64,000 nt of DNA from a virus (taxonomy: Duplodnaviria > Heunggongvirae > Uroviricota > Caudoviricetes): IMG/VR virus record IMGVR_UViG_3300035396_000446, positions 35,006-99,005 of that record; one strand, 5' to 3'. A program made the translations under genes and the position numbers. This document shows, in pieces, positions 2,339-61,218 of the stretch (position 1 is its first letter; each line of letters starts with the position of its first letter). The notes under the pieces are model-generated. The model had not been told where the DNA came from. It did not search any database and saw nothing but the letters and a program-made list of their open reading frames with translations.

Positions 2339-2376
2339 TTTTTATCCTAAAACAAAATATTCTGGTCTTCTAATAA

Positions 2377-4248
2377 CTACGTCTTAACGTCTGTCCAATT
2401 CTCGTCATCTTCATCATCATATCTAAGGATAGGGATAAGTGGGGCAAACATTGAATCGGATTCATCTATCGTTAAATTATCTTTAATTTTCTTCTGAGTT
2501 TTTTCACTAAATAAATCATAGTTATCATTATAGAATGATACAATTTCTGATTCCTGGAATAACTTCCATACTTTTTCTTCTACTAATTTTTGATCATCTT
2601 TTAAAGGTCTAACACTGAAAACTGACTGTCCTAAGTCCATTAACACTTCTCTTAAATGACAATAGATGCCCAAAGCTATAACTAAGTCATCATTGGCTCC
2701 TGCCGAAGCCTTCGCCTTCCCAGTTCGATCTTCCCAAATAAAACATAATAACTCATCTATTGTTCTTTTACTATTTATTTTTACTCTATCATTTTGGAAA
2801 CAATCAATTAAATCATTCACAAGAAGAGGTCTTGTTTTAGTGGAGGTTACCCAACCATAATCTCGATATGCTGCTTGCTTTCTCTTTCTTTTATAAATAT
2901 GAGATGTGGGATATTTCAGTGTCTTAAATATATGAGACATCACAGCAAGTCCTGGATTATTTATCTCTATTACTAACGTAGCAAGCCCGTAGTAATACCC
3001 TACTTTTACTAATACAGTCGCATAGTCAGGCGTATCCATTTTCTTTTTATACTCGGCAACTTGTTCGTAAGTTTCTAAATCAAATACATGGAATGAGGAA
3101 TAACTTTTAGAACCCGCCCCACAATCGGCAGTTATGGCGTATCTACCGCCTTCTTTTGGTTGTTTAAATATATGTAAATCATTTAAGACTTCTGTCTTTT
3201 TTGTTTCATAACTCACAATAGAGTGAGAGATAGGGTCTATTACTTTATAATTAAGAAGTTTTTCCTTATCTAAAACCGTGTCGCCTGCCACAAGCCACTT
3301 CTTACACACCTCTTGTAAGAAGATGTCTCTTGCTGTATTTTTAAATGCACCGTCTAGCCAAGCGGGATTCGTGATGTACTCGGGGACTTCCCACCAATCT
3401 ACCCCAATTAAATTAAAATCTGTATTTCCTTCCTCGGTTTGAGTAAGCATATTGTAATACCACTCACCCTTGCCCATATTGCCATTTCTTGTAGATATGA
3501 TAATAACTTTAGATTTGTCTGACTTAGCAATAGCATAGTAGGACCCTGCCCACATTTTCTTCATTCCCTCGATAAATGCAGCTTCATCAAAAACTAAGAT
3601 GGATAGGGACCCCGAACGAGACCCCTCTTCTTTTCGAGGTAATGATTTAACAGAGGAGCCATTTCCTAACGATAATCTATGAGCATTTGTAGGCGGAACA
3701 CTTCCAAAATGAGGGATTCGTCTGAACCACTCAGGTAGATTATCGTAGGTTCCTTTTAATTTCTCTAAAAAGGATTTTGAAACTTCATCATCTGTTGATA
3801 TTATCTCTATAAGTTGATCTTTGAAAAATAGTAGTTTATGCAGTAGTAGAGCTTGGGTTGCTATTGAAAATCCAACCTGCCTACATTTATCAGAAATAAT
3901 ATACTTACTTCTCATAAACTCATAATAATAATTCTGTTGATATAAGTACGGATTGTAATTCAAAAACCCTTCGGTTTGATCTTTTATTTTAAGGTGTCTA
4001 CAGAAATAAAGAATATTTTTCTTACAGAGTCTAATTTCTTCTTTTAGCCAAATCTCTGAACCAACTGGGTGAGGGTTTATAGAGACATCTAAGTCTTCTA
4101 AAGATAAATTTTGATATACTTTTTTTCGAGCTCTTTCTAAACCAAGGAAATATTCATCTTGAACTAACTCATTACAAAATTTGTGTTCTTTAGCTTTTGC
4201 GTAAAGTTTATCATAGTCTAATTGATAATAGTCAAAATAAGATATCAA
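2377..4248 (-). CDS. terL: terminase large subunit (ATPase plus nuclease domains)
   Basis: 623 aa. N-terminal ATPase half has the Walker-B/coupling motif SLSILVFDEAAF. C-terminal half is RNaseH-like with acidic clusters (ITADCGAGS, FHVFDLE). T4 gp17-like architecture. Confidence 0.8.
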   Translation of the reverse strand: MISYFDYYQLDYDKLYAKAKEHKFCNELVQDEYFLGLERARKKVYQNLSLEDLDVSINPHPVGSEIWLKEEIRLCKKNILYFCRHLKIKDQTEGFLNYNPYLYQQNYYYEFMRSKYIISDKCRQVGFSIATQALLLHKLLFFKDQLIEIISTDDEVSKSFLEKLKGTYDNLPEWFRRIPHFGSVPPTNAHRLSLGNGSSVKSLPRKEEGSRSGSLSILVFDEAAFIEGMKKMWAGSYYAIAKSDKSKVIIISTRNGNMGKGEWYYNMLTQTEEGNTDFNLIGVDWWEVPEYITNPAWLDGAFKNTARDIFLQEVCKKWLVAGDTVLDKEKLLNYKVIDPISHSIVSYETKKTEVLNDLHIFKQPKEGGRYAITADCGAGSKSYSSFHVFDLETYEQVAEYKKKMDTPDYATVLVKVGYYYGLATLVIEINNPGLAVMSHIFKTLKYPTSHIYKRKRKQAAYRDYGWVTSTKTRPLLVNDLIDCFQNDRVKINSKRTIDELLCFIWEDRTGKAKASAGANDDLVIALGIYCHLREVLMDLGQSVFSVRPLKDDQKLVEEKVWKLFQESEIVSFYNDNYDLFSEKTQKKIKDNLTIDESDSMFAPLIPILRYDDEDDENWTDVKT

Positions 4249-7867: not shown

Positions 7868-8901
7868 TATATATCCAATAATTCATCCGAATTTATATTT
7901 GATACTTTTTTAGATTTATTTTCTTTTTTTAGGCCTTTGATTTGGTCTTGTACCTCTTTTAGTCTTTGACCAAGTAAAGTATCGGGGAGCGGTAGTCCAT
8001 TTATTAAAATATAACAAGCATCTTGCCCATCCTCGCAGTCTGACTCTGCAACGATTTTAAAGTAAGGCACCCACATATTTAATTTCTCCAATACAGAGAT
8101 TGTTATAGGTTTTTTTGTTTTAAAAAGAACAATTGCTTTTTTACCCTTAGATAAATCGAAATCTATAGATAAGCTATCGGGACCATTCTTTAGACTTAGT
8201 TCAAATATATTTAGAAATCCATGGTATTGTTTGTCTGGATATACAATTCTTTTAAACTCTTCTTTGTCTAAAGATTTTAAACCATTTAACTTGGGATTAC
8301 CTCTGAAGCTATCGAAATCGAACATTTTAATGCAAGCATCTACAATCTTGCTATTTACATCATACCATGTGAAGCCACCACCTTTCCCAAGATGCTTCTG
8401 ATAATCATCATTATTCACTATAACAGCAGTTATTAAACCATTCTCAATGTAATCTGTATTTATTTTTTGTAACAAAGCCAATGCATTTGAGCACGACGGA
8501 TTGCCCTCTAGAGATAAAGGAAGAATCATTGTTGTTTTAACAGTAATGTTCATCTGCAATAAGATGTCTATAATGAAAGGTAACGATCCAGACCCTGTTC
8601 CACCGCCAAGACCCGCAAAAATATTAACTTCATCTACTTCTGTGTCATCCAATAGAACTTGTTTCAAAAAATCTTGAACCTTATCCCTTACCTCAGAGAA
8701 AATCTCAACTGTTTTTTTGGGATTCCTACCTGACCCTTCACCCTTTCCTACTACTAATTTAATAGCAGAGGGTTCGGTTATCTTATTAAGATCGTCCTTT
8801 GCAGTATTTAAAAGTATCAATTTATATTTTCTACGAGTTTTGTTAAAATATTGTACCGCGACGTTACAACCTGACTCACCTAATCCAATAATGGCTTCCA
8901 T
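7867..8901 (-). CDS. FtsZ/tubulin-superfamily GTPase (phage TubZ/PhuZ/FtsZ-like)
   Basis: 344 aa with the G-box IIGLGESGCNVAV, LLNTAKDDL (FtsZ NTD-like), VVGKGEGSGRNP (T3-like), the tubulin/FtsZ signature AGLGGGTGSGSLPFI (GGGTG[ST]G), then TVKTTMILPLSLEG and a VNNDD T7-like loop. RBS AAGGA upstream of the ATG. Confidence 0.8.
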   Translation of the reverse strand: MEAIIGLGESGCNVAVQYFNKTRRKYKLILLNTAKDDLNKITEPSAIKLVVGKGEGSGRNPKKTVEIFSEVRDKVQDFLKQVLLDDTEVDEVNIFAGLGGGTGSGSLPFIIDILLQMNITVKTTMILPLSLEGNPSCSNALALLQKINTDYIENGLITAVIVNNDDYQKHLGKGGGFTWYDVNSKIVDACIKMFDFDSFRGNPKLNGLKSLDKEEFKRIVYPDKQYHGFLNIFELSLKNGPDSLSIDFDLSKGKKAIVLFKTKKPITISVLEKLNMWVPYFKIVAESDCEDGQDACYILINGLPLPDTLLGQRLKEVQDQIKGLKKENKSKKVSNINSDELLDI

Positions 8902-8917
8902 ATATATTCCTTATCAA

Positions 8918-8941
8918 AAGACGCACTTTCTAGTGCGTCTT
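8918..8941. terminator. intercistronic stem-loop between the 1193-aa gene and the FtsZ-like gene
   Basis: 9-bp perfect stem AAGACGCAC/GTGCGTCTT with a 6-nt loop. T-runs follow on the plus side and a short U-run on the minus side. Possible attenuator or processing site. Confidence 0.35.
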
Positions 8942-8961
8942 CATCTTTTTTAATTACGATA

Positions 8962-11900
8962 TTAGTCGAATAAGTTTAAATAATCTAAAACATTGTCTGA
9001 TTTTTTTGATTCTACTAAGGATGCTTCAATATCCAGTATAACAGAGCTCAGTTGAACGTTATTGAGGTCTCTCTTTCTACTAGCGTCAAAAAGCTGTGAG
9101 ATTACCTTTTTGATAGACAAAAGGTCAGGAAAAACACTGGCATATAAGCTATTTATCGCTCGTAAATATGCCCTACAAAAATCCTCAAAAAATTGTTTAT
9201 TTGAAAAATTTAGATTTTTTGAGTTCATAGCTTTTTTACTTTTAAAAAAACTATCTAGCTTCTTTTTATTTAATCCAAAAGAATCTACGTCTGTTGCAAG
9301 TATTTCACGCACAGCGTCGCCCATTTGTATAACATAGGTTCCTTCCGAATTTTTAGATATTTGCGTTATACTAACTGTATCTAAAGCTTCATCCTCTAGT
9401 AATTTAGCAACCCTTAGAAAAAAACTACCGATCTTATTTTGTTTTTTATCTACTATTAGCTTATATAACTCCATTGTATCACTTGCATAAATAGATTGTA
9501 TAAAGCTAGATAGAGTCATATTTATCTGTGCAACACCCTCTCCTCCAGTTGCTTTTATTTTCTTTAAAAATGCATCACTAATTATTGTGCATACATTATT
9601 AGGAGACATGGATTTATTCTTATCATCGTATGCATTAGAAAATGGCTTTACATTTATAGAATCTAGAAAAGCTGCGAATACTTCTCTAGACACCTTACTT
9701 CCAGAAAATATCATATCCTTTATAGAGGAATTAGTAATCGTTTGACCTTTAGTATTTATAATTCTGTATTTATCCACAAACTTCATTATTGCATAGACTA
9801 AGGGAGATCTAGAATCCACATTGATATCTCTGGTGGAGATGTCATATTTTTTTATCTGCGAAGTAAAGTCTTTAGCTTTTTTTTGTAACGTTGTATCGTT
9901 TAAGTAACTAAGAAAAGTTTCATTTTTAGATATTGACTTTTTAGAAATATAATTTGCTCTCTGAAGACTCGGTTGAAGCTTTGACTGTTCTTCTACACTG
10001 CTATTGTATATATTCACAAATTCTGTAAACATTTTATTTAAGGTAGAGTAAGGAAGCCCATACATTATATAGAAAGAATAAGAAGCGAACCACTCTTCTA
10101 AACTTACAAGACTTATAGCATCCTTTGATAAAATGGAGCTATATTTTTGTGTATCTCCAATGATATCCCGAGCGCCATTTATAATACCTTTTATTTGTGC
10201 ATCTGTTAGTATCAAGTTTCGATGCTGTGAACTAGGTACCATGCCTTTTTGAGTTTTATATATAACCGGGACGGCTCCCACTGCCGCATCAGCAGTTAGA
10301 GGAAGGGGCATCTCTAGAAGGATTGCGTCGTCCTGAGATATAGAGAGGTCTTCTGAAAGAACATTATCCTTTATAACTTTTCTTATCTGTTTAAATAGAT
10401 TTTCTATATCCAATTCTTGATTCATGCTCTTTACTGTTTGGAAAGAATTACCACTTTCAGAAAGAAAGTTTCTTAGGACTCCCTCACAGTAATCAACATC
10501 TGACAGTAAAGTAGATTGAATTCTATTGTAAATCTTATTTACTCTGTCTCTCTGATACTCAGAGGAATTATCTAATTCTTCCGCATCATCTTCAGGTGTC
10601 AGTACATCTACTAGGTCTGAATCTGTTGTTATCATTGGATCTTTAATTTTTAAACAAGTAGACAATAGTACAGAATATGTATTACTAACGCGAGAATACT
10701 TATATAGACCATCTCCCTCTTTATTTTTAGTAATATAAGTGTCCAATAAAGACCTGAGCTTTTGAAAATACTTTTTAATATTTTCTTCTTTGAAAATAAA
10801 ATCCTCATCCTCTATTGCCATAATCCTAGATTTTTTTGCAGACTGCTCTTTAATTAACATCTCTACTGGTAGTAAAGAACCTAGGTGTGACATATAAGAC
10901 TCAAAGTATTGAGAAAGATCTGTTTTTTTCCTCTCTCCAATAAAGTCATTATAAAAATTTAAAACAGAGTTAATTTCTGCTACCGGGTTAGTTATTATAA
11001 GACCTGCTTCAACTTGCCCATCATTTTTATTGTCATTTATACTTCTATACTTATTAAAGTTATAGACATTCCCCCAACCACCCTTCGAAGTTCCATCATA
11101 GTAGAAAAATGAAGAATCTCTAATTTCTAATGGTAGAAAATAACTTCCTTCCGCAGTCTTTAATGTTTCAACCGTATCTATAGCATAAATAGCAGTGTAT
11201 GTTTTACCTTCATACGTAACCTTTGGAGGATTCCCAGCAACACCTAAATCACTATATTTTACCATTATAGCGCCAGCCTGCGTAAATCCATCACTAAGCT
11301 TTATCGAAGTATCAGTATATTTGTCATTTAAAACCATATTAGCATATTGCAGCTTTCCGTTATACTGAAGATGGTCTACCTGATTATTATCCCCATCTAT
11401 TATCCTACTTAGACCACTTTCACCCTTTTTTACTAACTTTGGCATATAAGAGTAATGAGGTAATTGATAATAGTGAAAATAGTTAATTATGTTGTCTATA
11501 TTATCAACAGAGATTTTATATGAACCATCTCTCCCTTGTATTTCTATAACGTCGCTGCCTTCAAACAGGCTGGTTAGATATTCTGCTGCTTCTTTTGGTT
11601 GTTTTATAACATCATCAGGATACAGCACATGATAAAGAGTTTCCGGAAGAACTTCCTCGTCCTTAGTATATGTAAGTTCCTTACCATTTTTTTTAATAAT
11701 ATTTAAGCTTTTTGATATTTTACCGCCTAATAGCCTTTTGTGCATAAAAGCATAGAATAATATCTCGTTTATTACTTGTGCAAAAACAAAAGCATTATAC
11801 TGAAGATCTACTTTATCTATATTTTTCTTTTCTTGTTCTGATATATTATTGAATATATCTACTATTCTTTGATCTCGTCCTATGACTATATTCTCTACTT

Positions 11901-18511: not shown

Positions 18512-18790
18512 TTAATTCCCATCGTGTAAGTATGCGTGTGGTTCGTAAGTTGCTCCGCATATATTACATTGACGGTAACTATTAACATACGGAACCTTTT
18601 CGTGTAAAACTAAACGCCCATTTTTACAATTTGGGCATAGATCTTTGACAGCTACAATATTGTGTATCTCTGAAATCAACATCTGGTCTTCCAGGATATG
18701 TAACAGCAACCGAGCTCGATCTTTTTTCGTAAAATCTTCTGTTTCTGTCTTTGCTAATTTCAAAATTAATTCTATGTATTCTTTATTCAT
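18512..18790 (-). CDS. small zinc-ribbon protein
   Basis: 92 aa with CPNCKNG...CNICGATY (CxxC...CxxC). Confidence 0.4.
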   Translation of the reverse strand: MNKEYIELILKLAKTETEDFTKKDRARLLLHILEDQMLISEIHNIVAVKDLCPNCKNGRLVLHEKVPYVNSYRQCNICGATYEPHAYLHDGN

Positions 18791-19410
18791 GGGTTACTCC
18801 TATAAAAATCTTCTGCGAATCCCTGGGAACACATTGACCGAATATCTGCGTCCGTTTTAATGTGCTCTTTCGCCCACTGAAACTCTTCAATATAATTTAC
18901 GGCGCTTTTGTGTAGGAAAGCAAGGGCGGGCTTCGGCCTCCCTGGTCTGACATATAATTTATCATTCTTTGGCACGTCTTCCCATTTGGTGTATCTGTAC
19001 GCAGGCATAGTAAACCTACCCCATAAGGCAGTGTCTTTCGTCCAAGGGCTCCCAAATTGCCAAGGCTGATAGGCCGCAACAGGATCTCCGAGAACCTCTC
19101 TTAGTCTGCCTCTTGCGGGGTTTTCTAGTACCCACCATTTAGGATTACATTGCTCAATAATTCTTAGGCAATGATTTACTAAAAACATCCCTTTTTCCAT
19201 ATCATTAACCTTATGAAATCCCTTCGCTGTGGACAGATCCGTGCAAACGGGGTTCGCAATAATCCCATGTACGTTTTTAGGCGGTATAAAATTTTCCACG
19301 CCTATTTTTTCTCCAACCATAATTACTTCATAGTTGTCTTTATCTCTTTGATAGAACAAACTATCACTACCTAAATCCGCACATAAATGCAAAATTATCT
19401 TTTTTTCCAT
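18787..19410 (-). CDS. C5-cytosine methyltransferase-like catalytic core, short, no obvious target-recognition domain
   Basis: 207 aa. HLCADLGS is motif I-like; IIANPVCTDLSTAKG resembles motif IV (PCQ, with PC-T); WWVLENPARG resembles motif VI (ENV). Only 207 aa, so atypical or truncated. Confidence 0.45.
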   Translation of the reverse strand: MEKKIILHLCADLGSDSLFYQRDKDNYEVIMVGEKIGVENFIPPKNVHGIIANPVCTDLSTAKGFHKVNDMEKGMFLVNHCLRIIEQCNPKWWVLENPARGRLREVLGDPVAAYQPWQFGSPWTKDTALWGRFTMPAYRYTKWEDVPKNDKLYVRPGRPKPALAFLHKSAVNYIEEFQWAKEHIKTDADIRSMCSQGFAEDFYRSNP

Positions 19411-19427
19411 ACTTTATTCTACCATAA

Positions 19428-21311
19428 CTAAGCTATAATGTCAATAGTATTTCTTAATCTTAAAACTTCTTTCATTTTTGCAAATATGAAAGCGTCTGGG
19501 TTATGAAATAAGCTTCCGTTTAAAATACGATCTTTCTCTAATATATAGCAAGCAAGCTCGTCCATTTCTCCAATACACTCTAAATAATAGCAATTAACAT
19601 CACTTTTCTGCCCAATTCTATGAGACCTAGCCTCCGCCTGAAAATGCCGTATAGTTTCCATGTATATATCGAAAAATATATGGTCGTTAGTATTCAGTAA
19701 GGTAATGCCTGTGTCCATTACCAAAGTAGAAAATAATGCCAATTTGCATTCAGGATCATTTATAAACTTATCCTTTCTCGCTTCTCTTTCTTTTATTTGG
19801 TCTTTCCCTGACTTTGGGTTTTCGCCATGAACAACTACAGGGTTGTATTTCTTAAATACCTCTGCCAAATAGTCCAGAACCGCTGGTTGATAGCTCCAAA
19901 TAACAACATCCCTTCCAAACTCATCGATAAGAGTTTCTAGGTAATCTTTTATAATACTGATCCTCGGATTATCTTCAACCGGAGACGCTATAAATCTAAG
20001 AACAGATAACATATGCTTCTTTATATCAGAATAATGGATAGTTTTACCATTTATAAATAAATTTTGTTTTTCTAAATCCTTCGTAATCTCATCTATGAAC
20101 TCAAGGTAACTTTTCTCAAAACTAGTATCTCTCAAGGAGTACCTTAAAAAAGAAATATTTAAGTCAGGCAAGTCAAGATGATCTTTTTTAAACGCTCTTA
20201 ATATATATGGGCTTAGGTCTTCATCTATGAGTTTTTTAACTTCATTCCTATAATAATACTCTATCTGCTTGTTTTTAAAACCACCTTTTTTGCATAATCT
20301 ATTTTCAAAATCATCATAGGGTTGAATTATTATACCAAGAGACAGTATTCGCATAAGAGCCCATAATTCTAATGGAGTTTTTCTTATTGGAGTTCCTGAG
20401 AGTAAATATCTGAACTCAAAACACGGAGCCTCTCTCATTATAGTTTGGGTTGTTTTACTTTTTTTTGAGCTTGCTTTATGTGCTTCATCTAAAATAAGAC
20501 AATATTTCCCATTTGAAGTAACTTTCTCTAATACTTGCTTGTACCCACCGTAATGAAATCTTCCTAAGTCCTTCTTCTTCTCTCTAAGCATTTTTACTTG
20601 CTCAGAGTCTTTTGCATACCCATCTTTTAGAAGTTTCTCTATTTTTCCATCAAGTTTATTCTTTTTTTTATCATACTCTACAAAGGCCTCGCTCTGTTCA
20701 TTACATACAATTTTAAAACTATCATATGTCATTATGTATATTTTCTTATTGAGTTTGAAAGGATCTCGATGCTCTTCTTTATTTGTATTTATTATTAAAA
20801 TATCATCTTCAGTAAAATCATTAGAATATTTTAAAAACTCTATTTTCCAATTGTATAAAACTGAGGGAGGACAAACTATAATGCAATTCGTTGCATTATT
20901 ATATCTAAAATGATAAGTAAATGTAACAATGGCGATATATGTTTTCCCTAAGCCTTGTTCAAAGAATAAACCAAAAGCGTTAGTGTTACACATGCGAGAT
21001 ATGCCTGTATATTGAATATCATAAGGTTTATAAAGAAATAAATCAATTGGTACACGTTTTTTAGTAAACCAAACAGTTAGTAGTTGCTCTTTTAACTCCA
21101 TAATCTGTTTTTCAGCGTCTGGATGAACATAGGTCATAAACTTAATAAATTCATAGTAGAAATTAACTATGTTTTTTTTACTAAGTTTGATAAAACCATC
21201 GGTTATTTTCTCATAACCACATACTTTCGCTATGGTATGAACTTCTGAAATGTCTTTTTCTAATTTAACAAAAAAAAACTTGGAATCCGAGTCCCAATAC
21301 AAAGATGACAT
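19428..21311 (-). CDS. SNF2-family helicase/ATPase
   Basis: 627 aa with QGLGKTYIAI (Walker A), LILDEAHKASS (DEAH box), LLSGTPI (motif III) and a C-terminal helicase-C segment (FSTLVMDTGITLL...HRIGQ). Confidence 0.8.
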   Translation of the reverse strand: MSSLYWDSDSKFFFVKLEKDISEVHTIAKVCGYEKITDGFIKLSKKNIVNFYYEFIKFMTYVHPDAEKQIMELKEQLLTVWFTKKRVPIDLFLYKPYDIQYTGISRMCNTNAFGLFFEQGLGKTYIAIVTFTYHFRYNNATNCIIVCPPSVLYNWKIEFLKYSNDFTEDDILIINTNKEEHRDPFKLNKKIYIMTYDSFKIVCNEQSEAFVEYDKKKNKLDGKIEKLLKDGYAKDSEQVKMLREKKKDLGRFHYGGYKQVLEKVTSNGKYCLILDEAHKASSKKSKTTQTIMREAPCFEFRYLLSGTPIRKTPLELWALMRILSLGIIIQPYDDFENRLCKKGGFKNKQIEYYYRNEVKKLIDEDLSPYILRAFKKDHLDLPDLNISFLRYSLRDTSFEKSYLEFIDEITKDLEKQNLFINGKTIHYSDIKKHMLSVLRFIASPVEDNPRISIIKDYLETLIDEFGRDVVIWSYQPAVLDYLAEVFKKYNPVVVHGENPKSGKDQIKEREARKDKFINDPECKLALFSTLVMDTGITLLNTNDHIFFDIYMETIRHFQAEARSHRIGQKSDVNCYYLECIGEMDELACYILEKDRILNGSLFHNPDAFIFAKMKEVLRLRNTIDIIA

Positions 21312-21328
21312 ATTTTTTCCTTGTGCAT

Positions 21329-21357
21329 ATTATATAATGAAAAAAAATTCTTGTCAA
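21329..21357 (-). promoter_or_regulatory. sigma70-type consensus promoter (TTGACA-N17-TATAAT) for the SNF2 operon
   Basis: Minus strand reads TTGACA (plus 21352-21357), a 17-nt spacer, then TATAAT (plus 21329-21334), followed by AAGGAAAAAAT-ATG of the SNF2 gene. Confidence 0.6.
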
Positions 21358-21387
21358 GAGTAAAGATAATACTATAAGGAATAGATA

Positions 21388-22587
21388 ATGTTTACTGATA
21401 GAATACTAGATTTAGCCGGTATAAGAAATTCAAATAACTCCCTCAATACTAAGGGACGAAGTTTTAGTGATTTATGGACAATAAAGGAAGATGGCGCAAT
21501 ACAGGGGTCAAGTCTAGATAGAGTCTTAGAACTAGCGGGAGAATCTCTACTAGAGATGATTCAGGTCTCAAAGGCTAACAATGAAAGCGATTACGATATA
21601 ATAGCCTACAAAGATAAGATTTTTACTTACAATAATGAACAAAGAGAGGAAGTCGCGCCACTAATAATAAAGCATCTTGGATTAGAAAATTCAGAAATAC
21701 CTTATAACAACACTCCAATTGAAAACATGGAACAAGTTGAATACTATATTCAAGAAGAAGGCCCAGATGTTTTATATGGACGAGTATCGGACAATACTCT
21801 TTATCTTCACAGTTACGTTTTTAAGCACTCTAAACTTTCTTCTCTACTTAAAAAGGTTGTAAATCAGTTAGATATACTTGAAGTTAGTTATGATTATATT
21901 ACTAATGATGGAGAAGATTCTGAGGTTATAGTAAGACGAAATGAGATTGACGAAGAAATAAAGAATCACGTATTCTACCATGGCACTAGCTCCAAAGCTT
22001 TATATGGTATAGCACAAAAGGGGCTAATGCCAGGTGGAAGTAAAACTAACTTCCCAGGAATAGAGCATGATGAAGATATTTTCATTACAGTAAACAAAGA
22101 TAAGGCTTTTTTTCATGCGGAGACTGCTGCTAGAAATAACCAAGACATTCCTGTTATATTGGAATTAAGAGTTCCTAATCCATCTTTGCTGGGAGATGAT
22201 TATGATGTAGTTGTCAATATACTTAAATCTAACTCTGAGAAAAGCGATAGGTATGAGAATATAAATAGTAAAGTACGGAGACCAAAGACAACAGCGGATG
22301 AGAGTCTAATAAAAAGATTAACAGACACTGGAGAAGATATAAATAAAAAACTTGGTATATTTTCCTATTCTGGCAGAATCCCTGCAACTTATATAGACTC
22401 CTTTTTAATCGATGATGAAGCCTTTTCTTTTTATCACGTATACGAGGAAAAACCTGACAAAATAAAAGATTTAAACTCATGGGATAGGTATGATTTAAAA
22501 GATTTCAATGGTTATCTCGAAGATATAGAGAATAAATACGCACAAGAACAGGAAGATTACGAAGAAGACTATGAGGAAGAGGATTAG
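21388..22587 (+). CDS. ADP-ribosyltransferase-superfamily protein, Tpt1/KptA-like (RNA 2'-phosphotransferase / NAD-dependent)
   Basis: Only long plus-strand ORF (399 aa). VFYHGTSSKALYGIAQKGLMPGG...FFHAETAARNN...IPVILELR parallels E. coli KptA [23 protein letters not shown]...HLSADEATARKVG...SPVILTV. The HGT motif is also shared with diphtheria-toxin-class ARTs. Acidic C-terminal tail. AAGGA RBS 8 nt before the ATG. Confidence 0.55.
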   Translation: MFTDRILDLAGIRNSNNSLNTKGRSFSDLWTIKEDGAIQGSSLDRVLELAGESLLEMIQVSKANNESDYDIIAYKDKIFTYNNEQREEVAPLIIKHLGLENSEIPYNNTPIENMEQVEYYIQEEGPDVLYGRVSDNTLYLHSYVFKHSKLSSLLKKVVNQLDILEVSYDYITNDGEDSEVIVRRNEIDEEIKNHVFYHGTSSKALYGIAQKGLMPGGSKTNFPGIEHDEDIFITVNKDKAFFHAETAARNNQDIPVILELRVPNPSLLGDDYDVVVNILKSNSEKSDRYENINSKVRRPKTTADESLIKRLTDTGEDINKKLGIFSYSGRIPATYIDSFLIDDEAFSFYHVYEEKPDKIKDLNSWDRYDLKDFNGYLEDIENKYAQEQEDYEEDYEEED

Positions 22588-22617
22588 ACCCTCTAATCTA
22601 AAAAGATTAGAGGGCTA
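22588..22617. terminator. stem-loop between convergent genes
   Basis: CCCTCTAATC-TAAAAA-GATTAGAGGG, a 10-bp perfect inverted repeat placed exactly between the plus-strand gene stop (22587) and the minus-strand gene stop (22621). No clear U-tract. Confidence 0.4.
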
Positions 22618-22620
22618 GAA

Positions 22621-22923
22621 CTAGCTCTTCTTATTCATATTTTCAAACATCCCACCAAGACCCGCATAAGCAAATACTGTGCCCCATAAAGGTATTACTA
22701 TGGCTGTCCATAGCATAGCTGTCTCAGCTACAGCTTTATAGTTCATAAAAGTTAATACTAATAATGAAGCAGTAATAATAGCGGCCGCATATTTAGCAAC
22801 TTCAACAATTTGCCATTTTCTACTTGCTTTCTTCTTTAAGAGCTCGTAATGGAAGTCCTCCACGGTATCTTTATTATGCGATTTATTGACGGCGTTTTTA
22901 TCTTCTTCTGTTAATTTAAGCAT
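22621..22923 (-). CDS. small membrane protein
   Basis: 100 aa with two hydrophobic helices (AAIITASLLVLTFM..., AIVIPLWGTVFAYAGLGG). Confidence 0.45.
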   Translation of the reverse strand: MLKLTEEDKNAVNKSHNKDTVEDFHYELLKKKASRKWQIVEVAKYAAAIITASLLVLTFMNYKAVAETAMLWTAIVIPLWGTVFAYAGLGGMFENMNKKS

Positions 22924-24537: not shown

Positions 24538-25407
24538 TTAAATATCAAATGTTTGTCCGACTTCTAGAAATCCTCGGAATCCGTCATCTTTTGCTTTTGT
24601 TTTCCAATCGCAAGGTTTCCCAAAGAAATCTTTATCATCAAGAACATAATCTTGATAATGACTTAACCACATTTTATTTTTAATTTCTAAAGGTAGCACC
24701 TCGGCATTTGCTTCTGGATACCCCGCTAATTCTGTGTAATTTGCATGTACCCCTGATTTGAAGGGTAGACACTCACAATCTTGAATAATAATATCAGCCT
24801 TAGAGTAAAACACTCTCACTTGTTTCGGGGAACAATGTTGGGAGTCCGTTGTAAAGTAAATAGATTGATGACCTTGCTTACTCACAATAAGGCCAAATGT
24901 ATCACTAATTTTAGATCCTGTCATTATGTGAACCTGTTGGATAAGTTCAAAGTTCCAACCCTGCCATATAAATGACTTATCTACGGGCTTTGGCTCAAAG
25001 TAAGTTTCAATTGTAGCGTCAAATCCCTCCATGGATTCTAAACCACCCCTTAATGTGTTTTTCCAAAGACTTTTAATTAATTCCTTCTGCGCATATAATT
25101 TAGGAGCATAGGGTTTCATCTTACCAATGTTTTCTAGCTGTGTAAAATCATTCCATCTTACAGGTCTATTCATCCAGTCATACCTATCAAAGGCGAAGTT
25201 CTCTAGAGATCCGCAATGATCGTTATGCTGATGTGAGATATATACACTATCTATATCTTTAAAAGATAACCCAGCATTTGTTAATGCCTCGGGGACTAGC
25301 CTCCCACAATCAATTAGCATTCGTTTGCCGTCCTGCTCTAGCACAAAGCTCTGATTAAAATTTCTTTTTGAGAATGCATTACCACATCCAATTATTGTTA
25401 TACGCAT
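24538..25407 (-). CDS. metallo-beta-lactamase-fold hydrolase (RNase Z/PhnP-like)
   Basis: 289 aa with MRITIIGCGNAF, LIDCG and ISHQHNDHCGSL (the HxHxDH zinc motif). Confidence 0.7.
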   Translation of the reverse strand: MRITIIGCGNAFSKRNFNQSFVLEQDGKRMLIDCGRLVPEALTNAGLSFKDIDSVYISHQHNDHCGSLENFAFDRYDWMNRPVRWNDFTQLENIGKMKPYAPKLYAQKELIKSLWKNTLRGGLESMEGFDATIETYFEPKPVDKSFIWQGWNFELIQQVHIMTGSKISDTFGLIVSKQGHQSIYFTTDSQHCSPKQVRVFYSKADIIIQDCECLPFKSGVHANYTELAGYPEANAEVLPLEIKNKMWLSHYQDYVLDDKDFFGKPCDWKTKAKDDGFRGFLEVGQTFDI

Positions 25408-25420: not shown

Positions 25421-26347
25421 TTATTTGATATAAAACCCGTTAGAATCTAACGTATCTATTTTTTGCTTTTGGGTTACAAAAACATCATAGAACTCATCTA
25501 CAATAAGTCTCATTTCTAAACTAAGCTGATTTAGTATTGGAGACTTGATTGCATTAGGTATTCCATAGAAAGCCTCTGCTATGCCCCCTACGATTGCGCA
25601 TAGAGTATCTGTATCCCCGCCTACCATAACTGCGTTTCGTATAGCATCTTCAAAGCTGGTAGAGTTTACAAAGCAATTAAAAGCTAAAGGCACTGTTCCT
25701 TGGCATGTTACATCGAACTTGTATGTTTTACTTATTACTTCTAAATCATCCCCAAGTAGGCTTCCCCTGTAAGGTGTCTCTACCCCTCGATAATGATCTG
25801 TGTATCCATTGATATAACATAAATCTAAAAACTTACACATGGAAGTATTAAAATCTCCCATCTCCGCTATGCTTGTTTGTAAAGCATTGTAAACCATTCC
25901 TGCTGTAGCTTGAGCCCCATATATGCCCTCTGAGTGATTATGGGTTACAGCCGCAGACTTAGCTGCTTCGATATGAATAGTTTCTATCGGGCAACTCAAA
26001 CTATAAGCGTATGCCACAGGAGCGACACGCATGGCTGACCCGTTACCATAACTATTGTAGGGGTTATTATCTTTATTTAACAGCCAAGCATGAAAACTCT
26101 GACCAAACCCAGATTTATACTTTCGTTGTTTATTAGAAAATGTGCTATTCTTAGAATACTTATTACCCCAATACTTATAGCATACCTCGTATGGCATTTT
26201 GTTTAACAGAGCATCCATAGTTGCTACTGTAAGAATTGTGTCGTCCGTAAAGAAACAAGAGTCATTAAACAAAGGAAAATCCTTGCTTCTATGATTCTCA
26301 AACTCGTATCTTGAACCTATGTAATCACCAATAATTGAACCTAACAT
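25421..26347 (-). CDS. ADP-ribosylglycohydrolase (ARH/DraG family)
   Basis: 308 aa with MLGSIIGDYIGSRYEF, FFTDDTIL, GNGSAMRVAPVAY and MVGGDTDT..AIVGGIAEAFYG, all hallmark ARH motifs. Confidence 0.75.
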   Translation of the reverse strand: MLGSIIGDYIGSRYEFENHRSKDFPLFNDSCFFTDDTILTVATMDALLNKMPYEVCYKYWGNKYSKNSTFSNKQRKYKSGFGQSFHAWLLNKDNNPYNSYGNGSAMRVAPVAYAYSLSCPIETIHIEAAKSAAVTHNHSEGIYGAQATAGMVYNALQTSIAEMGDFNTSMCKFLDLCYINGYTDHYRGVETPYRGSLLGDDLEVISKTYKFDVTCQGTVPLAFNCFVNSTSFEDAIRNAVMVGGDTDTLCAIVGGIAEAFYGIPNAIKSPILNQLSLEMRLIVDEFYDVFVTQKQKIDTLDSNGFYIK

Positions 26348-28792: not shown

Positions 28793-30013
28793 TTATAGAA
28801 ACCTACCCATAAACTGATTTTTCGCTTCATCCAAGTTGCTTACTGATGTCAATAGATTGACATCAACAGAGGCACTCTTGTCCACGAACGTAGATCCTTT
28901 CGGGTCGGTTTTGGCCAACTCGGCCATACCTTGGTTTAGAATATTAATAGAGGCGTTATAGTCTCTATCTATTTCTAAACCACATTTTTCACATTTAAAA
29001 GTCCTATCTTTCAAAGTTAGATCAACTTTTTTCCAACCACAACTAGAGCATGTCTTACTGGAAGGGAAGAACCTATCTACTTGATGAATAGTTCTACCAT
29101 ACCAACCTGACTTATATTTTAATTTTGTAACAAAAGAAGACCAAGACACATCATGGATTGCTTTGGCTAGTTTGTGATTTCTCACTATTCCTTTTATATG
29201 TAAATCCTCCAAACAGATAACTTGGCTCTCGTTAGCTATTTTAGAAGATAATTCATTTAAAAAATGGTTTCTCTGATTTGATACATGAAGATGGACTTTT
29301 GCTAACTTTACTCTTTGTTTTTCATAACGATTACTTCCTTTTACTTTTCTACTTAGCCTTCTTTGTAGAGTCTTTGTTTTATTTTCTGAATTTCTTCCAA
29401 AATGGGGATTCTCTATAATAGTTTTATCAGACATTACAGCAAACTCTTTTAGGCCTAGATCTATCCCAATGGATTTTGACTGGACCGGTAAGGTAGGAAT
29501 TTCTACATCACATAAGATTGATGCGAAATAATGACCTACCTTATTTTTGGATATAGTCACGTTACATATTTTTATAGTTTGTAGTATATCAAGGTATGAC
29601 CCCGATGCCTTAAATGAAACAAACCCAAGTTTTAATAATTTTATCTTAGTCTCAAGTACTTTACAGAAAGTTTCTGTCTGTGGTTCTCTATATGAATCTT
29701 TCATCCCCTTCTTCTTAAACTTAGGGAACCCTGATCCCATCTTTTTCATATTTTTGAAAGCTTCTGTTAAATCATTTTGAGCTTGTTGTAGTCCCCTAGA
29801 AGACCCTAAGGCCAACCATTCCAACTCTTTCTTAAAATCTTTTGGATTTAATTGTTTAAAGCCCTCATAACTACCATGCTCTTTTTTCCAAGAAATAACA
29901 TGTTCAAGACATTTATTATACCAAAAACGACAGTTTCCTATTGTCTGATTAATTTGTTGTTCCTGTTTTTTGTTAGGATACAATCTGACTTTAAATGCCT
30001 TCTTTCGTATCAT
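28793..30013 (-). CDS. tnpB: TnpB (OrfB) RuvC-like RNA-guided nuclease, IS200/IS605 family
   Basis: 406 aa. N-terminal KVRLYPNKKQ...CRFWYNKCLE; RuvC-I IGIDLGLKEFAV; RuvC-II VICLEDLHIKG; zinc finger CSSCGW...CEKCG; RuvC-III DRDYNASINI. All catalytic residues present. Confidence 0.8.
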   Translation of the reverse strand: MIRKKAFKVRLYPNKKQEQQINQTIGNCRFWYNKCLEHVISWKKEHGSYEGFKQLNPKDFKKELEWLALGSSRGLQQAQNDLTEAFKNMKKMGSGFPKFKKKGMKDSYREPQTETFCKVLETKIKLLKLGFVSFKASGSYLDILQTIKICNVTISKNKVGHYFASILCDVEIPTLPVQSKSIGIDLGLKEFAVMSDKTIIENPHFGRNSENKTKTLQRRLSRKVKGSNRYEKQRVKLAKVHLHVSNQRNHFLNELSSKIANESQVICLEDLHIKGIVRNHKLAKAIHDVSWSSFVTKLKYKSGWYGRTIHQVDRFFPSSKTCSSCGWKKVDLTLKDRTFKCEKCGLEIDRDYNASINILNQGMAELAKTDPKGSTFVDKSASVDVNLLTSVSNLDEAKNQFMGRFL

Positions 30014-30438: not shown

Positions 30439-32049
30439 TTAATACTCTATATCATCAAAAAGTAATGGGATACTTTCTTGAAACTCTTTTAGTAAAGGTC
30501 TCATTAACTCATGCATAATTGGATGTGCTACATCAGCAGTTCGTAAATCCATAATGTGTCGCCACTCTCTAATATTTGTGGTAACAACGATATCTGCTTT
30601 AATTCCAATAGGAAGTACATCCCTTGCAACTTGTGCTTTTACACCCATTCCAATAAGTTTCATGTAATTATTTTGAGAAGATTCCCAAGAGGATAAGAAT
30701 ATATCCTTGGCTTCTTGTCCAAGATTTTCAATATAGTCTGGAATGATTACTGAAATTTCGTTTCCGAACTTTTCTTTTGAATAATTCACGTATCTTGTAC
30801 TGTTATGGGTGATAAATCCTTCAGCAACATAATTGTTTAAAGGAGAGTTCATCTCCAAATCATAAAAAAACTCTTCTACTCCAATCTTTTCTATACTCGT
30901 TATTCTAGATAGTTTGGTATAAGAACATTTTTTCATCTCTTTATGGATCAACTTATGGCATTTGACACATAAAGGTAAAAGATTATACTCCTCATTATTT
31001 TTGGTATCTTTATCCGAGTGATGTCTCTCCTTTGCAGTGGACCCACAATTTAAGCATACAACCTCCTTTAATGAGAAGTTTCTATTAGCTCTACTATACC
31101 CATTCTTTACAGAGTTGCCTAGCCACGCACTATTTTCTTCACCTTTCCCGTTGTTGTGATGGTGGTTTCTTAATGTCTCGGCCTGTTTAGCTACAGATTT
31201 ATTTTCTGACTCTTTTACCCCACGATTCCATACTACCCTCCCATTCTTATATTGATTGTCTATTGTTTCTTTCATTTTTTTATAAGAATCTTCAGTATGA
31301 TTTATGTTGTATTTTCCTGGGTTTTTATCATTTTTCCTAGGAGTAAAAACATTTAATTTTTTAAGGATACGTATAATGCTTCTATATGGAATTTTATGCT
31401 TTTCACTTATTTCCAGAGGGCTCAAGTCTTTGTACTCTTCCACTAGTGAATCCTCGTCTATATTTAAGAGAGATGGTCTTCCGTTGACATTAATATACTC
31501 GCCAACTTTAAGATTTTTTACTGAATCATACTCGTTACTGTTCCTTAATAATTTGTGCTCGCAAGAACAGTCTAAGGAGTACCCTTCTTCCGTGTTAGCC
31601 CTGTATACATCTCCACCTTTCTTTTTGAATACGTGCATAATCTTATTGGCGACTATTAACTGATCATTTGTTACACTTTTTGCTAAGGGAAGGCTTTCCC
31701 CCTTTTCTTGCAGCTCATGTAGTTCTTCAATTGTTATCTTTGTCCCATCTGACATACTTATTTTTGTATTACCTGTGACACATTCCTGGGCAAAAGAAGC
31801 TAAACGCATTCTAACAATTTCATGGCTGAATCCCCGGTTTCCGTGGAATAGAACAGATATTACAGGAGCATGTTCAATCATCGCTTCATGTTTATTTTTA
31901 AGTAAAGTAGCAATCATTTTAAGATCGCTACCCTCTTGAATCAGATCTTCTGATTTATAACAAACCCTAGCAATTCTCTCAATCTGTTTTGTGAACTCTG
32001 TATTCCTGATGTCAGTTAAAATTTCATATGTTGGTTTTATTAATCTCAT
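30439..32049 (-). CDS. thyX: flavin-dependent thymidylate synthase ThyX interrupted by an intein
   Basis: N-extein (aa 1-89) has ARVCYKS and HxxIxxxRxRLASFAQE. The sequence is then broken by C (CVTGNTKI) and resumes after ...ITHN with STRYVNY, restoring the ThyX R(H/M)RxxSxxxxSxRY motif. Exteins total about 209 aa. Confidence 0.8.
   Translation of the reverse strand: MRLIKPTYEILTDIRNTEFTKQIERIARVCYKSEDLIQEGSDLKMIATLLKNKHEAMIEHAPVISVLFHGNRGFSHEIVRMRLASFAQECVTGNTKISMSDGTKITIEELHELQEKGESLPLAKSVTNDQLIVANKIMHVFKKKGGDVYRANTEEGYSLDCSCEHKLLRNSNEYDSVKNLKVGEYINVNGRPSLLNIDEDSLVEEYKDLSPLEISEKHKIPYRSIIRILKKLNVFTPRKNDKNPGKYNINHTEDSYKKMKETIDNQYKNGRVVWNRGVKESENKSVAKQAETLRNHHHNNGKGEENSAWLGNSVKNGYSRANRNFSLKEVVCLNCGSTAKERHHSDKDTKNNEEYNLLPLCVKCHKLIHKEMKKCSYTKLSRITSIEKIGVEEFFYDLEMNSPLNNYVAEGFITHNSTRYVNYSKEKFGNEISVIIPDYIENLGQEAKDIFLSSWESSQNNYMKLIGMGVKAQVARDVLPIGIKADIVVTTNIREWRHIMDLRTADVAHPIMHELMRPLLKEFQESIPLLFDDIEY
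30802..31782 (-). other. intein (327 aa) with embedded HNH homing-endonuclease domain, inserted in the ThyX RHR/SxRY active-site motif
   Basis: Cys+1 at 31782-31780; terminal His-Asn (30807-30802) followed by Ser+1 (30801-30799, checked against the nucleotides). HNH module: CLNCGSTAKERHHSDKDTKNNEEYNLLPLCVKCHKLIH. Confidence 0.75.
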
Positions 32050-33580: not shown

Positions 33581-35233
33581 TTACCTAAACATGGAATAAC
33601 CTTCGGCTCTGCATACTACTGGGTCATAGCATATCCCATTTTTCACACAATTGTAACATTTTTTAATTATCTCGCAACTCTTAATCTGCGCTTTAACTTT
33701 TTCTAAACTTGGCGCAGATGCATTCTGAGATGCTTCCATAGTTCTTCTTGTTGCTTCTGATGCGGGTTTAATTCCTGGGTCTATTTTCCATACTCCATTT
33801 CTAGTATGCCATGCTTTAATGGTTTCTTCTTTTGTTCCAAAAGCATCTGTATTGCAACAACCATAACACAAAGTTTTATCCATGTCCTCATATCTACTTT
33901 TGTTAAAAATATACCAACTTTTTCCATTGATTATATTATCTTCACATTCCAATGTTACTTCTTCACCACAAAATGGACATGGTAGAAGTTCTTCGGTATC
34001 ATCGTATCCACTTGTATCTAATAGTTTGTCTTTTATCTCTTCGTAAGTTTTTAATATATCTTCATCTGTCAATGTATTTTTTTCGGAGGGTTCTTTTATT
34101 TCATTGTATAGTTTGCAATATTCCTCTTTAGACATATGCTTAAATTGCTCTGCCACGTCCTTAAGTACTTTTTCACCATAAGTTTGTTCTTCCGTATCAA
34201 GCAATTCCATGAACTTTTTATTTCTTAGTTCATGTATTTCATTATCACCCGAACTATTATAAAGTTCCATAATCTCTTTAGAATTTGCGGGATGTTCTTT
34301 TACAAAGTCTGATGGTTCTTTTTCAGCATAATCTTTAAGAGGACAATCTTCTGGGAATCTCACATTATCATGATCTCGCCAATATTTATCAACAATTGTT
34401 CCCGTTGCAGCACAGACTGTTTCAATATCTTTTCCGCAGGTTCCGCTAGATGCTCTAAGATTGCAAGTCTCGCAGCTTTCTATTAACATATATTTTAAAG
34501 ACTTTTTTCTACCAATGGTATCTAATGATTCTCTATGGTTCTTAGATACAATCTCATATAGTTCAATATTAGACAGTTTTCTAATAGAGTAATCAGTACC
34601 TTGCCCACTCATCTCTCGATATAATAAACCATTATCAATAAAATATGTTGTCGGAAAATCGTCATCCTCTGACACTATGTTTTTAGCATCATCTCGTTTA
34701 CAATCAAAAAACATGTAAAACTCTTTATTGGACACATTCCCGAACAATGGTTCTTTATAAGGGTTATCTGAGATTATATTTTCAAATTCAAGATGCATCA
34801 GAAGTTGCTTCTCAATATCTTTAAATCTTTCAGATGATTTAAAATCTTCTTTGGCTTTTTCTCGTTTCTCTAAACTATCTATACATTTTTCTATAAAATC
34901 TGGAGAGTCTACAAAAATTTCTTTTAATTTAGCATTCATTTTGTTTGCCCGGTCTCTTGTAAAATGTTCGTCTAATTCTTCTTTAGTTAATGCTATAGTC
35001 TTGTCTATTTTATTAGCATACTCTTTATATTTTGGATTAAGCTCGTTTGGTTCTTTATCTATATATTTAGATTGGGTATCCCTTGCAATTTTTGTAGTCT
35101 GCAAAAAAGTTTCTGATTTTCTAATTTTATCTAAGATACTCATTTTGCTTTCCTCTTTACATTTATCACATCCCCAGATTTCATGATAGGAATGATAATC
35201 AGTTGGCCATTGAATTTGTATTTGACAATTCAT
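33581..35233 (-). CDS. large Zn-finger protein with C-terminal Lar-like (restriction-alleviation family) zinc-ribbon domain
   Basis: 550 aa. C-terminus LPCPFCGEEVTLECED...WY...CYGCCNTDAFGTKEETIKAWHTRNG matches the Lar-family pattern CPFCG...C..C...eeAIxAWNRR. Additional CxxC pairs mid-protein. Confidence 0.45.
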   Translation of the reverse strand: MNCQIQIQWPTDYHSYHEIWGCDKCKEESKMSILDKIRKSETFLQTTKIARDTQSKYIDKEPNELNPKYKEYANKIDKTIALTKEELDEHFTRDRANKMNAKLKEIFVDSPDFIEKCIDSLEKREKAKEDFKSSERFKDIEKQLLMHLEFENIISDNPYKEPLFGNVSNKEFYMFFDCKRDDAKNIVSEDDDFPTTYFIDNGLLYREMSGQGTDYSIRKLSNIELYEIVSKNHRESLDTIGRKKSLKYMLIESCETCNLRASSGTCGKDIETVCAATGTIVDKYWRDHDNVRFPEDCPLKDYAEKEPSDFVKEHPANSKEIMELYNSSGDNEIHELRNKKFMELLDTEEQTYGEKVLKDVAEQFKHMSKEEYCKLYNEIKEPSEKNTLTDEDILKTYEEIKDKLLDTSGYDDTEELLPCPFCGEEVTLECEDNIINGKSWYIFNKSRYEDMDKTLCYGCCNTDAFGTKEETIKAWHTRNGVWKIDPGIKPASEATRRTMEASQNASAPSLEKVKAQIKSCEIIKKCYNCVKNGICYDPVVCRAEGYSMFR

Positions 35234-36768: not shown

Positions 36769-36845
36769 TATTATATCATGAATTTTTGTAGAAACATTTG
36801 CTTTAAATTCTGCCGATATTCTACCATGATTCAAATAGAATGTCA
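36769..36845 (-). promoter_or_regulatory. tandem sigma70-type promoters upstream of the gene at 36763
   Basis: Distal: TTGACA (plus 36840-36845), 17-nt spacer, TAGAAT (36817-36822) with TGg. Proximal: extended -10 TGATATAAT (TATAAT at plus 36769-36774). Confidence 0.45.
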
Positions 36846-36850
36846 AGTAT

Positions 36851-38973: not shown

Positions 38974-39002
38974 ATTATATCATGGTTCTTTAGGTGTGTC
39001 AA
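38974..39002 (-). promoter_or_regulatory. sigma70-type consensus promoter TTGACA-N17-TATAAT (extended -10 TGaTATAAT)
   Basis: Minus strand: TTGACA (plus 38997-39002), 17-nt spacer ending CATGA, TATAAT (plus 38974-38979), then a roughly 17-nt leader to the AAGGA RBS. Confidence 0.55.
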
Positions 39003-53269: not shown

Positions 53270-53479
53270 TCATTTTTTAATTTCTCCTTTAATATCTTCA
53301 TAATTACAAGTTATTATAAAGTCATTTCCTTCATCTGTCAGCTTCATAAAATATTCACATGCTTCAGTACATCTATTCGGTATTTCATTGATGTCTTCCT
53401 GGTTTTTTCCAATATTATACGGACATCTAAAACCACCGTCAATACTTACTTGTGCTATATTAGTTCTTATTTCTTTCAT
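53270..53479 (-). CDS. hypothetical small protein
   Basis: 69-aa ORF with scattered Cys. Confidence 0.3.
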   Translation of the reverse strand: MKEIRTNIAQVSIDGGFRCPYNIGKNQEDINEIPNRCTEACEYFMKLTDEGNDFIITCNYEDIKGEIKK

Positions 53480-56065: not shown

Positions 56066-56094
56066 ATTTTACCATGATATATGATTTTTGTCAA
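56066..56094 (-). promoter_or_regulatory. sigma70-type promoter TTGACA-N17-TAAAAT (TGg extended -10)
   Basis: Minus strand: TTGACA (plus 56089-56094), 17-nt spacer ending CATGG, TAAAAT (plus 56066-56071). Overlaps the 3' end of the nucleotidyltransferase gene and marks the end of the five-gene operon. Confidence 0.5.
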
Positions 56095-57026: not shown

Positions 57027-57036
57027 TATTATATCC

Positions 57037-59512: not shown

Positions 59513-59536
59513 CTGGATAGGTGCATACCTTAATTG

Positions 59537-60289: not shown

Positions 60290-60304
60290 GTTAATGCTCC
60301 TGTA

Positions 60305-61105: not shown

Positions 61106-61138
61106 ATATTATCCTGTTAGTTTTTTTTTAGGAAGCTT

Positions 61139-61167
61139 ATTATACCATGATTGTATAAAAAAAGCAA
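61139..61167 (-). promoter_or_regulatory. sigma70-type promoter TTGCTT-N17-TATAAT (TGg extended -10) for the pncA-vWA-PP2C-kinase-NTase operon
   Basis: Minus strand: TTGCTT (plus 61162-61167), 17-nt spacer ending CATGG, TATAAT (plus 61139-61144). Leader ends ACAGGATAATAT-ATG of pncA. Confidence 0.55.
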
Positions 61168-61218
61168 GTCCTTATTCCGAATTATCTAAAAAATTTTCTA
61201 TTTTTTTTCTTCGCCTTT

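Follow-up and report, generated by a model that had tools for sequence, protein, structure and literature searches.

The 64-kb window analysed here, the whole stretch of 64,000 nucleotides at positions 35,006 to 99,005 of the Caudoviricetes record IMGVR_UViG_3300035396_000446, carries its genes almost entirely on the minus strand, and the question that it raises is what the one gene running the other way does. From the sequence alone, this gene (Table 1) had been predicted to be a laterally acquired moron with its own promoter and hairpin, encoding a Tpt1/KptA-like member of the ADP-ribosyltransferase (ART) superfamily. Structural modeling and sequence comparison together establish an ART fold for the product, and sequence comparison places it in a widespread family of two-domain proteins encoded by large myoviruses and by jumbo phages. 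We see about an even chance that the protein is an active, non-canonical mono-ADP-ribosyltransferase effector that serves host takeover or counter-defence.

The window contains 94 open reading frames (ORFs) of at least 90 amino acids, the long ones otherwise all on the minus strand, and the present gene is the sole credible plus-strand gene of that size, as the remaining plus-strand ORFs overlap minus-strand genes. Because it scores 0.387 with a codon-usage log-odds table for which 21 long minus-strand genes of the same phage served as training set, like its real neighbours (0.27–0.41), and every other plus-strand ORF reaches at most 0.06, the gene is real and the only opposite-strand gene in the window. 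Its translation, 399 residues long, carries the motifs quoted in the original prediction and ends in ...AQEQEDYEEDYEEED. The start at 21388 is needed because the conserved Glu56 (140 of 147 family members) lies upstream of the next in-frame ATG. The G+C content of the gene (33.9%, against 34.6 ± 2.6% for the phage genes) and its codon usage are native, which argues against a recent lateral acquisition; that reading was rejected on these grounds. When the locus was compared as DNA with 50,697 phage records, no match came up, and the phage is thus new at the nucleotide level.

An AF2 model of the protein based on 32 sequences (pLDDT 82.9, pTM 0.79) shows the split β-sheet NAD-binding fold that matches solved ARTs. 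Foldseek against viral models aligned it end to end with a protein of phage nt-1 (TM 0.75–0.80), and the next matches were many ARTs of Bacillus phage G, a putative phage Tpt1, DarT, and Arr. The profiles agree with this structure, and ART families do turn up among them. The one Pfam match of the window protein, to PARP (PF00644), is below threshold (E 0.019; 14.9 bits against a cut-off of 26.7) and covers only positions 31–130 of the 199 in the profile; among 141 family members, weak matches fall on PTS_2-RNA (64), PARP (53), Arr-ms (17), ART-PolyVal (3), and DarT (1). The predicted membership in the ART superfamily is therefore upheld, as is the reading of the HGT strand as the NAD-site strand.

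Conservation was counted over 147 members that share ~25–30% identity. In the modeled ART domain, β1 (FYHGT) carries H198, β2 (DIFIT) F232, and α2 H243; β3 reads PVILEL, and β5/β6 read GIFSY-SGRIP. H198, G212, D271, and D273 are invariant, and almost so are G199 (146 members), T200 (145), F232 (145, with Tyr in 2 more), H243 (144, with Tyr in 2 more), Y327 and G329 (145 each), followed by R330 (131). Near-absolute conservation of the pocket among such divergent sequences is what an active site typically shows. The H-Y-[EDQ] branch of the ART superfamily includes PARP, diphtheria toxin, Tpt1, Arr, and DarT, and its His-Gly on β1 is present here as H198-G199. On β2, the position of the canonical Tyr (His in Tpt1) is occupied by F232, so that the aromatic ring is kept and the hydroxyl or imidazole is lost; in alignments, F232 falls opposite the Tyr of PARP-like ARTs (GVYLT), the second His of KptA, and the Tyr that Arr-3 has in its IYFS motif. 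H243 follows F232 by 11 residues, and the same spacing separates the nicotinamide-stacking Tyr54 and Tyr65 of diphtheria toxin and Tyr896 and Tyr907 of PARP1. The catalytic Glu of H-Y-E enzymes stands at the start of β5, which by sequence is G323-I324 here. β4, which forms a hairpin with β5, ends in D271-Y-D273; the two aspartates would adjoin the canonical Glu position and may replace this Glu.

The features of the other clade, R-S-E (Arg on β1, S-T-S on β2, E-x-E before β5), were not found in the window protein, which has His198, V-F-x-T, and no E-x-E. This separates it from Alt, ModA, and ModB of T4, which belong to the R-S-E clade. These are ARTs of T4-like phages used for host takeover, and homologs of the present gene in KVP40-like phages lie in the early region near asiA; on the other hand, the KVP40-like phages also carry a separate Alt-like ART.

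The region upstream of the ART domain is longer than the ~100 extra residues originally counted. It comprises ~190 residues, namely a leader of 42 residues and a conserved domain of 130 residues that replaces the N-lobe of Tpt1. Residues 1–50 are modeled at a pLDDT of 43–62. Within 21388–21555 (plus strand), the helix that opens the conserved domain (DRVLELAGE, residues 44–52) has a counterpart in the leader (DRILDLAGI, residues 4–12), which from the sequence looks like a short internal duplication. The conserved N-terminal domain has no recognisable relative and is not the winged-helix N-lobe of Tpt1; the columns in which at least 80% of the members have the same residue are E56, G131, S151, K156, and L161. 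Within the ART domain, the helical insert between β4 and β5 appears, by analogy, to stand where other ARTs have their substrate-recognition (ARTT) loop. The poly-acidic tail noticed originally is indeed present in the translation, and 111 of the 147 members have an acidic tail (at least 40% Asp/Glu in the last 20 residues). The window protein as a whole contains 79 Asp and Glu against 44 Lys and Arg, a net charge of about −35.

The family corresponds to PHROG 11974 ('unknown function'; E 1.9e-43, residues 68–395 against positions 27–369 of 369). By tblastn, homologs with 25–32% identity were found in 51 Vibrio T4-like phages (KVP40, nt-1, ValKK3, 6E35.1a, and others) and one Salicola phage. 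A profile search of 1.84 billion cluster representatives returned 831 at E<1e-3, 252 of them at E<1e-30, and 14 IMG/VR loci matched a degenerate DNA pattern drawn up by hand for G[IV][FY]GYxGRIP. The family thus occurs in KVP40-like Vibrio phages and in metagenomic contigs, the longest of 376 kb; contigs with stand-alone copies measure 64–376 kb. In two contigs, of 350 kb (L005) and 137 kb (L014), tandem paralogs with a small gene between them (7998–9044 and 9294–10412; 2168–3280 and 3530–4117) point to local duplication. PADLOC gave no match for the ART gene or its small neighbors.

Across the family the two domains always occur together, also inside long proteins. There they are accompanied by NUDIX (P0111, P0114, L010, L023), ART-PolyVal (P0138, L012), PARP-like ART (P0111, P0114, P0140), and GNAT (P0145) domains and by a GH108 lysozyme with a peptidoglycan-binding domain (P0154). 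Such multi-effector fusions are typical of virion-delivered polyvalent effectors (PMC5512222; PMC9503650). The family module shares these giant phage proteins with ART-PolyVal (PF18760), and delivery or use is therefore probably alike, yet ART-PolyVal is a separate family: only 3 of 141 members match PF18760 (best E 0.065), hhalign to a genuine ART-PolyVal domain gives 5%, and the two stand side by side in P0138 and L012. In purified virions of phage 6E35.1a, the homolog VP6E351A_0357, assigned to PHROG 11974, was represented by 18 and 4 spectra and the Alt-like ART by 122 and 233 (supplement of bioRxiv 10.1101/2024.12.24.630238). Packaging of the family protein in the virion is possible, though unproven.

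Genes of the family lie in early or accessory regions that vary in content and harbor anti-defence genes, among which AsiA of KVP40-like phages is counted. In these phages the family gene has the orientation of the early genes and is placed between the gene for topoisomerase gp52 and PhoH/AsiA. The only recurrent neighbors in 16 loci are a GNAT acetyltransferase gene, seen near the family gene in L004 and L010, and PhoH. Anti-defence genes lie within 5 kb in several cases: Apyc1 and an ADP-ribosylglycohydrolase in the window, Acb1 in L006, and a Tad2-like gene in KVP40-like phages. The Apyc1 gene of the window encodes a metallo-β-lactamase-fold protein that matches the anti-Pycsar Apyc1 (PF23023), a cyclic-nucleotide-degrading counter-defence protein, and adjoins the glycohydrolase gene. 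The glycohydrolase was considered as the eraser to an ART writer. This pairing is not conserved and was rejected: homologs of the glycohydrolase occur in Bacteroides, Porphyromonas, Escherichia, and Erwinia phages and in uncultured metagenomic phages (some records 460–735 kb), and in none of the Vibrio phages or the single Salicola phage that carry the ART family.

What the analysis shows is the gene, its fold and conserved residues, how large and how widely distributed the family is, and what it is fused to; catalytic activity, a role for D271 and D273, the kind of target, and the time of expression are inferred. NAD+ would be bound in the pocket formed by H198-G199-T200 on β1, F232 and T234 on β2, and A240 and H243 on α2, and the catalytic role of the absent β5 Glu would fall to D271 and D273, the invariant pair in which β4 ends. 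ADP-ribose would then be passed to a host macromolecule, chosen by the novel N-terminal domain together with the ARTT-position insert. With its acidic surface and poly-acidic tail, the protein would favor a basic, nucleic-acid-binding protein as the target; acidity fits docking on such proteins better than it fits RNA binding. The gene would be transcribed as its own convergent unit.

Several observations weigh against an effector of this kind. The closest solved structures, Tpt1, DarT, and Arr, modify RNA, DNA, or a small molecule, not proteins. A conserved canonical Glu at the start of β5 was not found in the 147 members, and the role proposed for D271 and D273 follows from strand adjacency, not from coordinates. 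An enzyme that sets free a soluble derivative of ADP-ribose would also agree with the recurrent NUDIX fusions; Bodo saltans virus has such a fusion, of Tpt1 and Nudix (PMC9503650). All-against-all BLASTP of the neighbors in the 16 loci revealed no partner conserved beyond closely related contigs, so that guilt by association is weak. The virion signal of VP6E351A_0357 is as low as that of the non-structural NAMPT (16 and 23 spectra).

One alternative, which we consider unlikely, is a small-molecule enzyme, either an NAD+ glycohydrolase or an ART that, like Arr with rifampin, modifies a small compound (a metabolite or an immune-signalling nucleotide), with a role in counter-defence against NAD-derived or cyclic-nucleotide signalling. 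Arr (PF12120) is a minimal H-Y-D type ART that also has FYHGT on β1 and an acidic residue ~38–39 residues after the β2 aromatic; F232 and D271 are 39 residues apart, against ~38 between the Tyr and the Asp-Asp of Arr-3. Soluble ADP-ribose products would agree with the NUDIX fusions, and Apyc1, Acb1, and the Tad2-like protein are enzymes or sponges for immune signals. However, Arr is a single domain of 140–150 residues, and hhalign to Arr-3 (a query sequence 100% identical to plasmid arr-3) reaches only 15%. The large extra domain and the 50-residue insert suggest recognition of a macromolecule, and anti-signalling genes occur in 3 of ~12 contexts, never as the immediate neighbor of the ART gene.

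Tpt1-like chemistry, as originally proposed, would transfer ADP-ribose from NAD+ to a nucleic-acid phosphate (RNA 2'-PO4, or 5'- or 3'-phosphate ends). The reaction would serve RNA repair, together with the RNA ligase of the phage, or would be a modification that caps or blocks; we regard this as quite unlikely. The parallel with the core of Escherichia coli KptA is reproduced by hhalign (NC_000913.3; probability 91.9%, E 7e-7), which aligns residues 184–262 with KptA 95–158, that is, β1-α1-β2-α2-β3 of the NAD lobe, and the deeper 147-sequence profile recovers the same core with F232 opposite the His of the KptA 'VHLS'. Searched against all PDB sequences, the family profile finds Tpt1 chains only (E ~1e-3), over 30 residues around YHGT...GLKP. 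The window protein and Tpt1/KptA (PF01885) share the ART fold and the β1 'YHGT' followed by 'GLxP', and neither has a Glu at β5. An RNA ligase and the RlaP nucleotidyltransferase are encoded in the window, and the NUDIX fusions resemble the viral Tpt1-Nudix fusion (PMC9503650).

Nevertheless, the likeness to Tpt1 is limited to β1–β3 and is equalled by PARP-like ARTs: hhalign to the PARP-like domains of P0114 and P0111, which sit in the same giant proteins as the family module, gives 95–96%, above the 92% for KptA. With PARP and diphtheria toxin the protein shares the His-Gly on β1, an aromatic residue at the β2 Tyr position, and a second aromatic or His 11 positions on, and GenBank names the homolog in Vibrio phage 1.081.O 'PARP catalytic domain protein'; it differs from this type in the N-terminal domain and the missing β5 Glu, and the alignment ends after β3. 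PF01885 gave no match on the window protein at E≤10, and the matches in 64 of 141 relatives are all below threshold (best E 4.7e-4) and confined to the HGT stretch. No match to the Tpt1 N-lobe was found in the N-terminal domain, which has a different fold. Over the 147 members this domain has no conserved Arg or His, so that the Arg-His-Arg-Arg tetrad of Tpt1, for which a check had been suggested, is not possible there, and no conserved Arg precedes β2. The second His of the H-H-h signature is replaced by Phe, and the β4–β5 insert and the invariant D-Y-D are further differences. The only conserved basic residues are K156 and R330, and an acidic protein of this charge is unlike an enzyme that binds RNA phosphates. 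The RNA-repair genes lie 34–40 kb away on the opposite strand. A resemblance of β5–β6 (GIFGYxGRIPxxFI) to the KptA stretch 'NGVWLTSTVAVEFL' was also considered; a 33-column profile of this motif found no Tpt1 in the whole of the PDB, and the resemblance was not used as evidence. Of the original assignment, the ART superfamily and the KptA-like core at β1–β3 stand, and membership in the Tpt1 family does not. Judged by sequence, the window protein is in the H-Y-E branch, about equally far from Tpt1 and PARP and a member of neither.

There is also a slim likelihood that the family represents a new class of ART, in which the catalytic acid has moved from β5 to the Asp-x-Asp at the end of β4, and the N-terminal domain and the insert direct ADP-ribose to a non-protein target, such as a nucleic acid or an immune-signalling nucleotide; if true, this would provide large phages with a general enzymatic counter-defence. 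An inactive ART fold used for binding, as a sensor or sponge of NAD+ or ADP-ribose or as an acidic DNA-mimic decoy, would accord with the missing Glu, with Phe in place of the canonical Tyr or His, and with an acidity and tail like those of DNA mimics, but it is very improbable given the absolute conservation of H198, D271, and D273 and the near-absolute conservation of G199, T200, F232, H243, Y327, and G329.

As for expression, the 76-bp gap upstream of the ART gene (21312–21387), where it had been thought to have its own promoter, contains a single strong promoter, a perfect consensus that points away from this gene toward the divergent SNF2 helicase gene. Seven promoters with at most one mismatch were found in the window, all on the minus strand, where 1.47 were expected and none of 100 shuffled sequences reached seven. 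Several of them have an extended −10 with the form CATGnTAnAAT in common. For its minus-strand genes the phage evidently relies on sigma-70 promoters of the host type, and the host probably uses canonical sigma-70 promoters. The best plus-strand site matches at 10 of 12 positions, a quality that occurs at chance frequency (12 sites observed in the surrounding region, 11.4 expected from shuffled sequence). T4-type late promoters (TATAAATA) showed no enrichment upstream of genes, and none lies upstream of the plus-strand gene. An own promoter for the ART gene is plausible but not demonstrated.

The predicted hairpin at the other end of the gene is borne out. The 66-nt region around it (22575–22640) folds with −26.7 kcal/mol on the plus strand and −25.6 kcal/mol on the minus strand (z −4.6 and −4.5), and none of 200 shuffles of the plus strand folds as well. 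It has no clean or canonical U-tract. Because the hairpin sits between two convergent stop codons, it is probably a bidirectional terminator or a transcript-stabilising element. The convergent gene that shares it encodes a protein of 100 residues with two predicted hydrophobic helices and no family match found. The idea of a laterally acquired moron with a promoter of its own is weakly supported: the inverted orientation and the hairpin are real, but the composition is native and a convincing plus-strand promoter was not found. The SNF2 helicase on the other side of the gap resembles ZorD/DpdE of defence systems (PADLOC E 4.6e-21), and a DNA methyltransferase gene (phrog_757) lies directly downstream of the helicase gene.

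Table 1. Positions of the plus-strand ART gene, its parts, and other features of the window
Feature	Position	Strand	Basis or remark
DNA methyltransferase	18787-19410	-	
SNF2 helicase	19428-21311	-	
Near-perfect sigma-70 promoters	19416-19444, 21329-21357, 36818-36846, 38974-39002, 53313-53341, 53414-53442, 56066-56094	-	consensus scan
Best, weak plus-strand promoter candidate, ATGACA-17-TATTAT	21305..21333	+	−10 hexamer overlaps −10 of minus-strand promoter
Perfect sigma-70 consensus, TTGACA-17-TATAAT, for SNF2 helicase gene	21329..21357	-	promoter scan
Shine-Dalgarno-like AAGGAA	21376..21381	+	read from sequence, 6 nt upstream of ATG 21388
Coding sequence, two-domain ART-fold protein (model and profiles), PHROG 11974	21388..22587	+	ORF translation, 399 residues, stop included in coordinates
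N-terminal leader, ~42 residues, peculiar to window protein, low model confidence	21388..21513	+	missing from 31/31 aligned homologs
Conserved N-terminal α/β domain, residues ~55-185	21550..21942	+	E56, S151, K156 conserved
ART (NAD-binding) domain, residues ~190-345	21955..22422	+	
Helical insert, ~50 residues (272-322), between β4 and β5	22201..22353	+	model helices 272-279, 284-293, 305-314, 318-322
C-terminal long helix (370-397), ending in poly-acidic tail (EQEDYEEDYEEED)	22495..22584	+	translation, model
Perfect 11-12 bp hairpin between convergent stop codons	22588..22617	both	folding
Convergent 100-residue protein	22621-22923	-	
Apyc1-like protein	24538-25407	-	
ADP-ribosylglycohydrolase, 3 kb from ART gene	25421-26347	-	PF03747; phrog_6572 E 1.8e-51
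TnpB / IS605 OrfB	28793-30013	-	
ThyX with intein	30439-32049	-	
Lar-like protein	33581-35233	-	
RlaP RNA-repair nucleotidyltransferase	56091-57026	-	
Eukaryote-type Ser/Thr protein kinase	57037-58668	-	
PP2C phosphatase	58652-59512	-	
Isochorismatase, may be nicotinamidase	60305-61105	-	
RNA ligase	62092-63150	-	

Farther along the minus strand, the genes from RlaP to the RNA ligase form a cluster (56091–63150) that suggests a block for RNA repair, signalling, and NAD salvage. The window also encodes a TnpB / IS605 OrfB (Cas12f-like) protein of 406 residues, a ThyX thymidylate synthase split by an intein (in the order PF02511, Intein_splicing, PF02511), and a protein of 550 residues whose C-terminal part weakly matches Lar, a restriction-alleviation protein (PF14354, E 1.2e-4).

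ARTs are among the main weapons on either side of the phage-host conflict, as exemplified by Alt, ModA, and ModB of T4, DarT, and AcrIF11, and to our knowledge the target of most phage ARTs is not known. More than 40% of jumbo phages encode ARTs, most of which are fast-evolving conflict proteins (PMC9503650), so that the kind of protein described here is already familiar. What is new is the family signature, in which an H-F...H pattern and the invariant D-Y-D are combined with a novel N-terminal domain, an insert at the ARTT position, and an acidic tail. For annotation, the family is a warning that an HGT strand alone does not justify the name Tpt1 or PARP. Because it comprises hundreds of clusters and is represented in cultivable KVP40-like Vibrio phages, the family is both common and experimentally tractable. 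Its target, once identified, would add a new mechanism of host takeover or anti-defence and would show whether ARTs can do without the canonical Tyr and Glu.

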